A stretch of DNA of 64,000 nt from Candidatus Bathyarchaeota archaeon (lineage in GTDB: Archaea > Thermoproteota > Bathyarchaeia > TCS64): contig JBDRQD010000048.1 of assembly GCA_043826455.1 (NCBI GenBank), positions 32,001-96,000 on the forward strand. Reading direction: 5' to 3'. Position numbers and translations under genes: made by a program. The notes beneath the pieces were generated by a model, which saw only the letters and a list, made by a program, of their open reading frames with translations, had not been told where the DNA came from and searched no databases. Positions 6,291 to 44,842 of this stretch are shown one piece after another (within the stretch, counting starts at the first letter, position 1; each line of letters starts with the position of its first letter).

Positions 6291-6450
6291 ACTCTAACTT
6301 TCCAGCACCACGAATATGTGTGAGGCTTCATTTAAGTCTCTTCATGGGGTCCAGGGTGAAACCCTTAAATGACGCGGGTAAGGCGATAAAACTGGATGCA
6401 TGAGGGCCCAGGGGCCCTGAGTGTATACCGACGAAGTAGGAGTGAAAGAG

Positions 6451-6615
6451 TTGAGTCAGAGAAGGCGAAGCTTCGACAGAGGCCCCCGTGAGATGACAAA
6501 GGCCGTCTGTTCAGACTGCGGCCAGGAGTGCGAGGTCCCGTTCAAGCCCACCGAGGGCAGGCCCGTGTACTGCCGCGAGTGCTTCGATAAGCACCGGCCT
6601 CCGCGCCGATACTAA
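6451..6615 (+). CDS. CxxC-x17-CxxC zinc-ribbon domain protein
   Basis: PREMTKAVCSDCGQECEVPFKPTEGRPVYCRECF; GGAGTG SD before TTG 6451. Confidence 0.9.
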   Translation: MSQRRRSFDRGPREMTKAVCSDCGQECEVPFKPTEGRPVYCRECFDKHRPPRRY

Positions 6616-6734
6616 AATATCGTACGTAATTACGCACGATATTCATCGTTTTTTGCAGAAACCATCCCCCTGAGGATGAGCTGATTTCTCTGTTGGCTTA
6701 ACAGGAATATTTTCGTATGTAATTACGTACGAAA
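6616..6734. repeat. Two related long palindromes (6616-6643 and 6711-6734)
   Basis: AATATCGTACGTAATTACGCACGATATT and TTTCGTATGTAATTACGTACGAAA, each with one mismatched pair; shared core CGTAYGTAATTACGYACG. Confidence 0.8.
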
Positions 6735-6792
6735 CCTTTGAGTTATAGCATCTAACCAACATAATTTATATCTCACCCGCCCCATCCTTTCA

Positions 6793-6885
6793 CCGCTAGA
6801 CAGGGAAGAATGAGACTATTGTGTACCTTAGCCTAACCAGGGTCTCACAAACGGCTGGCCTAGCGGGTTCTATGGAGGAAGCAAC
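6793..6885 (+). promoter_or_regulatory. Structured 5' leader of cysS containing a uORF
   Basis: TATA TTTATA 6765-6770; stems CCGCTAG(6793-99)/CTAGCGG(6860-66) and TGAGAC(6811-16)/GTCTCA(6842-47); SD GGAGG 6874-78. Confidence 0.6.
6810..6836 (+). CDS. Putative cysS leader peptide MRLLCTLA
   Basis: ATG AGA CTA TTG TGT ACC TTA GCC TAA, preceded by AGGGAAGA; contains a Cys codon. Confidence 0.45.
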   Translation: MRLLCTLA

Positions 6886-8331
6886 ATGAGAGAGCACCCC
6901 ATCCGGATCTATGACACCATGACCAGGCGGAAACGCCAGTTCAAGCCCCTCAACCCACCGGAGGTGACCATGTACGTCTGTGGCCCCACAGTCTACGGGG
7001 AACCCCACATAGGCAACCTGCGGACCTTCACCAGCGGCGACCTTATACGCCGGTGGCTGGAGTACCGGGGCTACAGGGTGAAGTACGTGATGAACATCAC
7101 GGATATCGAGGACAAGACCATCAGGGACAGCGGCAGGGCCGGGAAGACACTGAAGGAGTTCACCGACCACTACACCGGCGTATTCCTCCGCGGCCTCGAC
7201 ACCCTCAACAACAGGCGCGCCACGGCCCACCCCAGGGCCACAGTCTACGTGCCCCAGATGATAGAGTTCATCTCGGAGCTGATGGCGAGAGGCTTCGCCT
7301 ACGACGCCGAGGACGGCGTCTACTTCGACATCGACAAGTTCCCCGGCTACGGCCGCCTCAGCGGCGTGGACGTCACCAAGACTGAGCGCACCGAGCGGGT
7401 GGCCGACGACGAGTACGACAAGGAGGACGCCCAGGACTTTGCGCTCTGGAAGAAGGCCACCCCCGAGGAGCTGGAGCGGGGCATCTACTTCGAGTCACCC
7501 TGGGGCAGGGGCCGCCCCGGTTGGCACATAGAATGCAGCGTCATGACCCGGGAGCTCCTGGGCGACACCATAGACATCCACGCAGGCGGCGAGGACCTGA
7601 CCTTCCCCCACCACGAGAACGAGGTGGCCCAATCCGAGAGCCTGACCGGCAAGCAGTTCGTCAGGTTCTGGCTCCACATGAGGTTCCTCAGGGTCGGCGG
7701 CAGAAGGATGGGTAAGAGCCTGGGCAACTACGTGAGCTTCGACCAGATACTGGAGAAGCACAGCCCCGAGGCCCTCCGCTACTTCTACATAAGCACCCAG
7801 TACAGGAGGCCCCTAGACTTCACCTGGCAGGCCATGGAGGCAGCCGAGAACACGGTCCGGCGCCTGGGAAACACCCTAGACCTGATAGAGAACGCCATGA
7901 GGGGCCCCGACGACAACCTGGACTACGGTGAACGGGAGAACCTGCTCCTCAAGAAGGTGCATGCAGAGGAGGAGGCCTTCGGCGCCGCCATGGATGACGA
8001 CTTCGACACCCCTGTGGCTCTGGGCCACTTACACGCCGCGGCCGGCACCGTCAACGAGTACATCACGGGCCCCGCCAACAAGGGGGTGCTTCTGGAGGCC
8101 GCGGACGCCTATCGGAGGATGCTTAACGTCCTAGGCCTCTTCGAGGAGAAGAAAGGAGGCTCCGACGAGGCCACCGAGCAGCTCATGGGCATCATCCTCG
8201 ACATTCGGGATGAGCAGAGAAAGGCTAAGAACTACGCCTTCGCCGACATTATCAGGGACAGGCTTCAGGAGGCGGGGGTGACCATTCAGGACACCGCCGG
8301 CGGAGCCACCTGGAAGATAGCCAAGAGGTAG
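6886..8331 (+). CDS. cysS: Cysteine--tRNA ligase
   Basis: YVCGPTVY, HIGN, DFALWK, GRPGWHIECS, HAGGEDLTFPHHENE, RMGKS (KMSKS-like). Confidence 0.97.
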   Translation: MREHPIRIYDTMTRRKRQFKPLNPPEVTMYVCGPTVYGEPHIGNLRTFTSGDLIRRWLEYRGYRVKYVMNITDIEDKTIRDSGRAGKTLKEFTDHYTGVFLRGLDTLNNRRATAHPRATVYVPQMIEFISELMARGFAYDAEDGVYFDIDKFPGYGRLSGVDVTKTERTERVADDEYDKEDAQDFALWKKATPEELERGIYFESPWGRGRPGWHIECSVMTRELLGDTIDIHAGGEDLTFPHHENEVAQSESLTGKQFVRFWLHMRFLRVGGRRMGKSLGNYVSFDQILEKHSPEALRYFYISTQYRRPLDFTWQAMEAAENTVRRLGNTLDLIENAMRGPDDNLDYGERENLLLKKVHAEEEAFGAAMDDDFDTPVALGHLHAAAGTVNEYITGPANKGVLLEAADAYRRMLNVLGLFEEKKGGSDEATEQLMGIILDIRDEQRKAKNYAFADIIRDRLQEAGVTIQDTAGGATWKIAKR

Positions 8332-43527: not shown

Positions 43528-43566
43528 CGGATACCTTTTTAAAAGCCTCAGCCACAATTCATACTC

Positions 43567-43705
43567 GGAGACAAGGGAATGAGTGTGCATCACTCGGACT
43601 GGACAGACTCCTCCTAGCGGAGGAAGCCATTTCTAAAAGCCACCCTAGTCCCGACCAAGCCAACGACCCAGCGGCAACGCTGCGCGTGAAAGGAGAAAAC
43701 AAGGG
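43567..43705 (+). promoter_or_regulatory. Structured 5' leader of trpS containing a uORF
   Basis: TATA TTTAAAAG 43538-45; hairpins 43580-96, 43610-23 and 43669-82 (GCAA loop); SD AGGAG 43691-95. Confidence 0.6.
43579..43617 (+). CDS. Putative trpS leader peptide MSVHHSDWTDSS
   Basis: ATG...TGG (codon 8)...TAG, preceded by GGAGACAAGGGA. Confidence 0.45.
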   Translation: MSVHHSDWTDSS

Positions 43706-44842
43706 ATGACGAACCAGAACAAACAGGAGATGGTGGTGACGCCCTGGGAGGTCAGCGGCGACATCGACTACGGAAAGCTCATGGAGCAGTTCGGAGTCCA
43801 GCCCATGACCACGGACCTGGCGGAGCGCATCGCTAAGCACGCCGGAGGCATGCACCTGCAGCTACGGCGAGGAGTATACATAAGTCACAGGGACCTAGAC
43901 TGGTGGCTGGGGGAGTACGAGAAAGGCAACAGGGTGGGCCTCTACACGGGCCGCGGACCCAGCGGCCACGTCCACCTGGGCCACCTGCTGCCCTGGTTCT
44001 TCTGCAAGTACCTCCAGGACGCCTTCGGCGCCGACCTGTACTTCCAGATGACGGACGACGAAAAGTTCCTCCACCGGGAGGACCTGACGCTGGAGGAGGC
44101 CATCCGGCTGACCTACGACAACTCCCTGGACGTCATAGCATGCGGCCTTGACCCGGAGAAGACGCACATAATAAGCGACTCGGACCACATCAGCCACATC
44201 TACAAGCTAGGCCTCAAGGTGGCCAAGAGGATCACCTTCAGCACAGTGAAGGCCGTGTTCGGGTTCAACAACAGCGACAACATCGGAGTCATCTGGCACC
44301 CCGCCCTCCAGGCCATGGTGAGCTTCCTCCAATCATACAGAGAAGGACAAAACATACCGTGCCTCATACCGGCGGCCATCGACCAGGACCCCTACTGGAG
44401 GATGACCAGGGACATAGCCGAGAAGATGGGCTACTACAAGCCGGCCCAGATCCACGCCAAGTTCCTGCCAGGCCTCGCCGAAGGGGGTAAGATGAGCGCC
44501 AGCCAGCCGGAGACCGCCATATTCACCACTGACCCGCCCAAGGTAGCGGCCAAGAAGGTGATGAGCGCCTTCACAGGCGGCAGGGACACCGTGGAGGAGC
44601 AGAGACGCCTCGGCGGAAGGCCGGAGAAATGCAACGTCTACGCCTACTACTATTTCCTCTTCGAGGACGACGACGAGAAGCTGGTAGACCGGGAGATGAT
44701 GTGCAAGAACGGTTCCATCCTCTGCGGCGAGTGCAAGAAGCAGCTTGCCGACAGGGTGAAGACCTTCCTCACGGACTTCCAGGCGAAGCGGGAGAAGGCC
44801 AAGGACGTGCTGGAGGACTTCCTCCTCAAACCCGTGAAATAG
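43706..44842 (+). CDS. trpS: Tryptophan--tRNA ligase (archaeal/eukaryotic type)
   Basis: VTPWEV, YTGRGPS, HLGH, TDDEKFL, AIDQDPY, KMSAS. Confidence 0.97.
   Translation: MTNQNKQEMVVTPWEVSGDIDYGKLMEQFGVQPMTTDLAERIAKHAGGMHLQLRRGVYISHRDLDWWLGEYEKGNRVGLYTGRGPSGHVHLGHLLPWFFCKYLQDAFGADLYFQMTDDEKFLHREDLTLEEAIRLTYDNSLDVIACGLDPEKTHIISDSDHISHIYKLGLKVAKRITFSTVKAVFGFNNSDNIGVIWHPALQAMVSFLQSYREGQNIPCLIPAAIDQDPYWRMTRDIAEKMGYYKPAQIHAKFLPGLAEGGKMSASQPETAIFTTDPPKVAAKKVMSAFTGGRDTVEEQRRLGGRPEKCNVYAYYYFLFEDDDEKLVDREMMCKNGSILCGECKKQLADRVKTFLTDFQAKREKAKDVLEDFLLKPVK

Follow-up and report, generated by a model that had tools for sequence, protein, structure and literature searches.

A conserved one-codon leader upstream of cysS in an order of Bathyarchaeia: a probable starvation-triggered frameshift switch

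Introduction

Bacterial leader-peptide attenuators (trpL, pheL/pheM, ilv) sense charged tRNA through a cognate codon in a short leader open reading frame (ORF), and the polycysteine small ORFs of mycobacteria reportedly belong among them; in archaea, a two-codon Trp leader precedes trpY of Methanothermobacter. To our knowledge, how archaea tune genes for aminoacyl-tRNA synthetases (aaRS) and amino acid pathways to tRNA charging is a largely open question. Here we analyze the leader of cysS, the gene for cysteine--tRNA ligase (CysRS), in a 64,000-nt stretch of DNA (positions 32001-96000 of contig C48; hereafter, the window) from the 2.95 Mb genome (58% GC) of a Candidatus Bathyarchaeota archaeon, along with similar leaders of other genes in the same order of Bathyarchaeia. 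Whereas attenuators depend on several cognate codons in a row and on a change in RNA folding, these leaders combine an upstream ORF (uORF) carrying one sensor codon with a conserved second reading frame. The observation is confirmed, is conserved in orthologues and departs further from known systems than the initial proposal supposed; the leader is probably a starvation-triggered frameshift switch.

By analogy, such leaders, or cassettes, would operate in much the same way as the autoregulation of prfB and the ermC shift that ketolides induce, and belong to neither. As described in a 2016 review (PMC5009743), bacterial prfB (RF2, +1 shift) has, as is proposed for the cassettes, a short first ORF, a slow A-site codon as the sensor, an internal Shine-Dalgarno (SD)-like stimulator and a product that relieves the shortage; in both, the productive frame is reachable only via a shift near the 5' end. 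However, prfB relies on a stop codon and RF2 as the sensor, in one gene and with a +1 shift only, whereas the cassettes carry sense codons for six amino acids, are predicted to shift in both directions and usually would employ a non-coding bridge ORF followed by reinitiation. The prfB site CUU-UGA with an SD 3 nt upstream is absent here: the sensors are sense codons, and pairing with the 16S rRNA tail of the same genome is strongest 9-10 nt 5' of the P-site codon for the three -1 families and at a distance of 5-6 nt for the two +1 families. Internal SD stimulators lie 9-14 nt upstream for -1 shifts and 3 nt upstream for +1 shifts (PMC5009743).

The ermC leader, as treated in the same review, is alike in that ribosomes on the uORF change frame, enter the spacer and switch the downstream gene on, but the trigger is a drug (ketolide), the action is by RNA unfolding and is not amino acid-specific, and no evolved bridge whose stop falls on the start is described there. 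In hungry-codon frameshifting (Gallant) and the Ty1 +1 shift, as proposed for the cassettes, limitation of aminoacyl-tRNA in the A site drives slippage; the review knew in 2016 of no starvation-specific functional use of hungry-codon frameshifting and judged frameshifting at pheL incidental (PMC5009743). Other sources report that ATGA termination-reinitiation coupling works in archaea, with the upstream stop overlapping or near the main start as in the cassettes (PMC6728339), but there both ORFs are genes, whereas in the cassettes a ribosome would enter the upstream ORF only by changing frame; that in the overlapping and main ORFs (oORF/mORF) of C. elegans zip-2 a +1 shift likewise moves upstream-initiated ribosomes into the productive frame when elongation is slow, but as a response to general elongation stress, in a eukaryote and at a single gene (PMC11831180); and that one archaeal programmed frameshift, fucA1, is demonstrated (PMC8211752). 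TrpY repression is treated in PMC6737238. A literature search that left most subscription journals and all supplements uncovered returned no paper describing this system.

Results and Discussion

The cysS leader contains a conserved one-codon uORF

The preliminary description of the stretch had read the cysS leader as an attenuator in which stalling at the Cys codon of a uORF refolds the RNA. The TATA box, the uORF with TGT as its fifth codon and the two stems on which that reading was built are all in place (Table 1), and the uORF and its Cys codon, the conservation of which was critical to it, are retained in orthologous leaders. After loci cut at contig ends had been dropped, we examined 40 cysS loci with upstream DNA, which comprised 33 unique leaders with the core NTG-AGA-NNA-TTG-TGT, 5 duplicates and 2 leaders without the core, both from other orders. 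A held-out set of 50 loci (14 duplicates, 11 not before cysS) contributed another 25, so that the core is found in 58 leaders of this order.

Table 1. Features of the cysS and trpS leaders (positions in the window)
Feature	Position	Strand	Remarks
TATA box, cysS transcript (TTTATA)	6765..6770	+	predicted transcription start site (TSS) ~6790-6795
Outer stem P1, 5' strand	6793..6799	+	89% of cells paired, compensatory changes at 4/8 pairs
SD-like GGAAGA abutting the uORF start	6804..6809	+	anti-SD pairing peak, spacing 9
uORF1 (sensor), MRLLCTLA-stop, Cys (TGT) at codon 5	6810..6836	+	
A-TTG-TGT, proposed shift site (Leu in the P site, Cys in the A site)	6818..6824	+	invariant, 33/33
ORF2, -1/+2 frame, opens at the Leu-Cys codons, 22 codons	6821..6889	+	open in 33/33 + 25/25 orthologues
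Outer stem P1, 3' strand, within ORF2, 7 nt 5' of the cysS SD	6860..6866	+	
cysS Shine-Dalgarno GGAGG	6874..6878	+	versus the 16S 3' tail of the same genome
cysS, cysteine--tRNA ligase, 481 aa	6886..8331	+	PF01406; TIGR00435 above cut-off
TATA box, trpS transcript	43536..43544	+	
trpS uORF1 (ATG 43579), Trp codon 43600-43602, shift site G-GAC-TGG	43579..43617	+	
trpS ORF2, -1 frame, 36 codons, stop overlaps the trpS ATG	43599..43709	+	open in 25/25
trpS, tryptophan--tRNA ligase	43706..44842	+	PF00579; NF008927 above cut-off

Among the 33 leaders, the start codon of the uORF varies (ATG 13, TTG 10, CTG 10), so the ATG singled out in the preliminary description is not itself conserved, and the stop follows 3-6 codons after the Cys codon (TAA 18, TGA 12, TAG 3). 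The Cys codon is single in 28/33 uORFs (two in family f4), which means that there is no run of cognate codons. A TATA-like box lies 43-48 nt 5' of the uORF start in 30/33 orthologues. Both codons of the proposed shift site are rare in this genome (TTG 5.9 and TGT 1.3 per 1000 codons), and the CysRS protein itself contains only 2 Cys in 481 aa. Matches to the core pattern occur in 68 of the 79 genomes of the order, some of them by chance; the loci scored as 'not cysS' (11/50) are not in a leader-like context, one of them (L402) resembles a cysS leader cut at a contig end, and a control pattern produced 17 matches in the 79 genomes.

A shifted second frame runs from the cognate codon to the main start

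What the preliminary description missed is, on the evidence of the sequences compared here, a second, shifted frame (ORF2) that extends from the cognate codon to the synthetase start or is the downstream protein itself. For each gene, the frame was fixed from this genome and then tested on orthologues, with the exclusion of rows lacking the core (cysS 2/40, trpS 3/28, thrS 2/28, valS 6/24, ileS 5/24; nearly all from other orders; within the order, family f4 accounts for three valS leaders and f3 for one). From the cognate codon to the main start, the -1/+2 frame is stop-free in 33/33 cysS, 25/25 trpS and 26/26 thrS leaders and the +1 frame in 18/18 valS and 18/18 ileS leaders. The opposite shifted frame is open in only 8/120 (cysS 2/33, trpS 1/25, thrS 1/26, valS 0/18, ileS 4/18), and the 3279 codons of the 120 leaders include 0 stops in the ORF2 frame versus 206 in the other shifted frame. 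The held-out cysS leaders, which come largely from other genera, agree with this: ORF2 is open in 25/25 and the other shifted frame in 0/25. The ORF2 stretches are diverged (mean pairwise identity 0.47-0.64) and of variable length (20-31 codons for cys, 21-49 for trp); by a rough parsimony estimate, 10-16 stop gains are expected per family, and the probability of none is 3e-5 to 1e-7 for each.

In the window, the TGA of ORF2 overlaps the cysS ATG (ATGA), and an ORF2 stop at +1 of this type is found in 63/120 leaders (cys 16/33, trp 12/25, val 15/18, ile 10/18, thr 10/26), with 115/120 stops falling within -9 to +19 nt of the main start; in the cysS leaders of family f4, where start picks are imprecise, it lies ~11-14 nt inside cysS. 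The recurrence of a cognate-codon uORF before other aaRS genes, anticipated in the preliminary description, is borne out for trpS, valS, ileS and thrS in addition to cysS: in each of these leader sets the sensor codon is single, invariant and cognate to the gene, and the codon before it is also invariant. ORF2 shows a depletion of the cognate codon in the Trp (1 vs 15 and 8) and Thr (19 vs 92 and 70) versions.

One conserved stem, and the initially proposed refolding output

The two stems fared differently across cysS orthologues. For the outer stem P1 (CCGCTAG/CTAGCGG), 89% of cells are paired and 4/8 pairs are changed on both sides (0/500 shuffles), whereas the inner stem (TGAGAC/GTCTCA) is paired in 54%, with zero double changes; both stems are in the minimum free energy (MFE) fold, the stability of which is ordinary (z -0.47). 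The competing pairing proposed in the preliminary description is not conserved either (TTAGCC in 5/33 and GGCTGG in 6/33 leaders). Conserved, mutually exclusive hairpins are thus absent from the cysS leaders, P1 alone being conserved and the cysS SD lying outside it, and a refolding switch between the named stems is not supported as the output. Nor is the motif that cysS and trpS were taken to share as a common element: it is present in this genome but is poorly kept in orthologues (CCTAGCGG in 1/33 cys and 7/25 trp leaders, GGAGGAAGC in 6/33 and 3/25, AGACA..GGGAA in 14/33 and 5/25), and a genome scan for AGACA..GGGAA gave 16 matches, among which just the two copies in the window are intergenic-like and none is in another aaRS leader. 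What survives of that interpretation is the uORF with a single cognate codon as a probable, recurring sensor of tRNA charging.

These observations bear on classical leader-peptide attenuation, in which a stall at the Cys codon would refold the RNA and free the cysS SD or block transcription termination with no change of frame. The conservation and covariation of P1 would fit it, as would comparable 5'/3' pairings noticed by eye in the val, ile and trp leaders; however, attenuation leaves unexplained both the stop-free second frame (145/145 leaders) and the start-less trpB2 and LeuA/CimA genes described below, the named alternative pairings are not conserved, the cysS SD is outside P1 and there is only one sensor codon. 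We consider it very unlikely. As for P1, it may keep basal initiation in check or leave untranslated RNA open to termination. A tRNA-Cys anticodon mimic (a thrS-type operator) was also considered and dropped because the GCA loop is not conserved.

Cassettes of other specificities

The Trp core precedes trpS, trpB2 and trpD/E-like genes; in this genome, a second copy of the trpS core precedes trpB2. There, what looks like a hairpin 3' of the Trp codon is sequence that codes for the TrpB2 N-terminus; it is at -1 relative to the uORF and has no start codon, and in 15/16 trpB2 genes there is no ATG, GTG or TTG before the first conserved motif. The first codons of trpS ORF2 are a relic of the TrpB2 N-terminus, and a single cassette has apparently been converted between a fused form, at trpB2, and a bridged form, at trpS. 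The invariant GTG at 43585 is a likelier start of the trpS uORF than the ATG at 43579. Within the order, three families have the Trp core in 38/43, 4/5 and 1/1 genomes and a fourth has it in 0/1; outside the order, it occurs in 3 of ~150 genomes. In two of these it precedes a trpD-like or a trpB2 gene and the -1 frame is open, whereas the third case is chance-like. The presence of the Trp cassette before unrelated genes at L159, L166 and L169 suggests that the cassette moves.

The unrelated genes at these three loci encode a ferredoxin-like protein and a small conserved protein, and the -1 frame still ends at their start. In many relatives (L039-L048 and others), a second trpS paralogue, ~50% identical, lies directly 3' of trpS. 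A purine always follows TGG, but the second GAC, on which a +5 hop from GAC to GAC over the Trp codon would land, lacks conservation, so such a hop is not required.

The valS core ATG-GGG-TAT-NGY-TTT-GTN has five further copies in this genome. One of these carries an Ile codon, and its +1 frame encodes a synthase of the LeuA/CimA family at the head of a leuC-leuD-leuB-like operon; pathway knowledge would make this gene a citramalate synthase, the hidden Markov model (HMM) match indicating the LeuA/CimA family only. Two ilvB operons are preceded by tandem pairs of cassettes (Val then Ile; Val then Leu), with the +1 frame passing through both up to the ilvB start, and one genome (L275) has a triple tandem of Val, Leu and Ile. 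In 12/18 LeuA/CimA genes, no ATG, GTG or TTG occurs before the first conserved motif, and the family HMMs of both trpB2 and LeuA/CimA match from 4-5 codons past the shift site; a second LeuA/CimA paralogue, located on C66, starts at an ordinary ATG and is not preceded by a cassette. The valS-core pattern is found in 77/79 genomes of the order versus 3 control matches.

Codon and gene are matched in the fetched loci (valS F-V 27; LeuA/CimA F-I 18; ilvB F-I 16, F-V 9, I-L 2; other or cut 5). This bears on the idea that the cores are binding sites (a T-box-like tRNA-binding RNA, a synthetase-binding operator or a DNA operator) with incidental ORFs, which would account for conservation at the nucleotide level, synonymous positions included. 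Yet the Val, Ile and Leu cores differ in the sensor codon alone, which tracks the pathway; all three kinds of stop occur at a fixed codon distance; the T-box UGGN antiterminator is not conserved in the cys leaders; and an Rfam search of the leader, T-box covariance models included, gave zero matches at gathering level or E<=10. We regard such a site as extremely unlikely.

A de novo scan of 1601 genes with long upstream gaps produced 95 candidates (~6% background), recovered cysS, trpS, valS, ileS, trpB2 and both ilvB operons, and revealed thrS, which was then upheld in orthologues. A scan for start-less genes gave 5 matches, two of which are trpB2 and LeuA/CimA. In all, the switch design is found at cysS and eight other genes or operons; among the leaders listed for the remaining aaRS genes of this genome, all are short as judged by eye. 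As a further candidate, alaS was rejected: its upstream ORF is not conserved in 15 loci, and it has its own promoter near the start.

Some leaders have additional peculiarities. The ORF2 of the valS leaders (G000 C39, minus strand, near 43563; L070-L084) contains a conserved GCGGACAACCTTTTAA that resembles a hairpin with a U-tract or an internal promoter with a B recognition element (BRE) and TATA box. The valS leaders L089, L090 and L099 retain the 5'/3' stem, and in them one frame, which begins with a Val codon just after a TGA, is open as far as the start of valS. At L341 (G026, family f3), thrS itself occupies the frame at -1 relative to the Thr uORF (a fused form), and the sole upstream in-frame ATG adjoins the TATA box.

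A putative frameshift mechanism

The conserved shifted frame that links the cognate codon to the synthetase start, or is the downstream protein itself, points to frameshifting with translational coupling. The cysS leader is probably an amino acid sensor in which a shortage of charged cognate tRNA would induce a ribosomal frameshift and turn the gene on via such coupling. In the proposed scheme, the ribosome would initiate on the conserved short uORF. When Cys-tRNA is ample, UGU would be read and translation would stop four codons on, 50 nt short of cysS; P1 would close over the uORF and cysS output would be low. When it is scarce, the A site would stay empty at UGU, and peptidyl-tRNA-Leu on UUG would slip into the -1/+2 frame, aided by the SD-like GGAAGA 9 nt upstream. 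The spacing of GGAAGA from the P-site Leu codon would fit a -1 frameshift stimulator and not an initiation SD; GGAAGA sits immediately 5' of the uORF start, too near to it for ordinary initiation. The shifted ribosome would then translate the constrained frame of ORF2 through P1, terminate on AUGA and reinitiate at cysS. The sign of control would be positive, shortage switching the gene on.

The sequences contain the parts called for by this scheme, namely a conserved one-codon sensor uORF, an invariant codon just before the sensor codon, a second frame that is free of stops and tied to the main start, start-less enzymes and stem P1. The P-site codons (TTG, CAA, AAA, TTT) are mostly rare and weak-pairing in this genome, and by pairing rules, re-pairing in the P site would be perfect for AAA-A (ile), would keep two of three pairs for UUU-N, G-GAC and C-CAA, and would be weak for A-UUG (cys). 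The cassette appears to be codon-programmable, with a -1 shift predicted for the Trp and Thr versions and a +1 shift for the Val, Ile and Leu versions, so that one genome would use both directions, with an SD-like spacing that goes with the direction; for trpB2 and the LeuA/CimA-family gene the shifted frame would be the enzyme itself, and at ilvB operons two or three tandem cassettes would form an OR gate for Val, Ile and Leu. Quite probably, then, starvation-induced frameshifting (-1 or +1 depending on the cassette) is a general, codon-programmable on-switch for synthetases, biosynthetic operons and start-less enzymes, tandem OR gates included, that fills the role of bacterial attenuators and T-boxes.

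Several points weigh against frameshifting as the output. The counts of open frames overstate independence because the orthologues are related, and per-leader shuffles are open by chance in 21-46%. In 4/33 and 3/25 cysS leaders (with uncertain start picks), ORF2 was scored as ending 16-35 nt into the gene, cognate-codon depletion in ORF2 is absent for Val and Ile and equivocal for Cys (2 vs 11 and 3), the family f4 valS leaders L089, L090 and L099 lack the standard core, and some Trp cores precede unrelated genes (L159, L166, L169). The SD-like peaks of trp, thr and ile are only suggestive because the GUG start itself contributes part, and in the ileS leaders a GUG that lies in frame 11 nt 5' of the Ile codon is invariant. 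Finally, the Cys site re-pairs poorly (one Watson-Crick pair for UUG to AUU at -1, two for UUG to GUG at +2), and the first shifted codon is NUG in the Cys (GUG), Trp (CUG) and Val (UUG) versions, which makes initiation in the alternative frame possible.

In that alternative, ORF2 would have its own near-cognate start over the sensor codon, and a stalled ribosome would drop its 4-6 residue peptide and restart in place in the other frame; the logic and the output would be unchanged, but no tRNA would slip. The NUG is present in 33/33 cys, 25/25 trp and 18/18 val leaders, near-cognate initiation is evidently tolerated given that uORF starts are themselves CUG or UUG, and the poor re-pairing at the Cys site would cease to be a difficulty; but codons that start with UG yield NUG at -1 automatically, and GAC in the 25 trpS leaders is never replaced by a codon with a better start. 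Moreover, the new-frame codon in the Ile and Leu versions is TTA, TTC or AAA (UUA or UUC in LeuA/CimA, 18/18, and ilvB copies), so there is no start codon at the shift point, and thrS gives AAC or CAC. The lack of a start codon in the Ile, Leu and Thr versions argues for slippage as the common mechanism, and restart in place appears unlikely.

If the frameshift mechanism is true, a compact cassette of 75-160 nt with its specificity set by one codon would represent a third solution beside attenuation and T-boxes and might provide portable amino acid biosensors. It would further imply that, in this lineage, the annotated N-termini of trpB2 and of the genes for citramalate/isopropylmalate synthase are wrong or truncated.

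Other features of the locus and the genome

The RNA runs yielded contigs of relatives only (share of words <0.1), which cannot show the TSS or transcription; one of these starts at 6805 and spans the leader into cysS, with a 3-nt deletion at 6847. Just 5' of the cysS promoter, a 64-aa ORF (6421-6615, plus strand), also covered by RNA contigs of relatives, encodes a CxxC-x17-CxxC domain protein (TIGR04272). Between this ORF and cysS lies an inverted-repeat-like element (6624-6640 / 6715-6732; cgtacgtaattacg ... cgtatgtaattacgtacg) with an AT-rich spacer, and a similar string, TAATTACGTACGAAAC, is located upstream of valS on C39. Elsewhere in the genome, AlaRS (592 aa; G000 C46:35109-36884) and ThrRS (483 aa; C72:27040-28488) are without editing domains, free AlaX-like genes are present on C15 and C68, and MetRS, which occupies a 941-aa frame with an extra internal domain, is of unusual length (C15:133402-136227).
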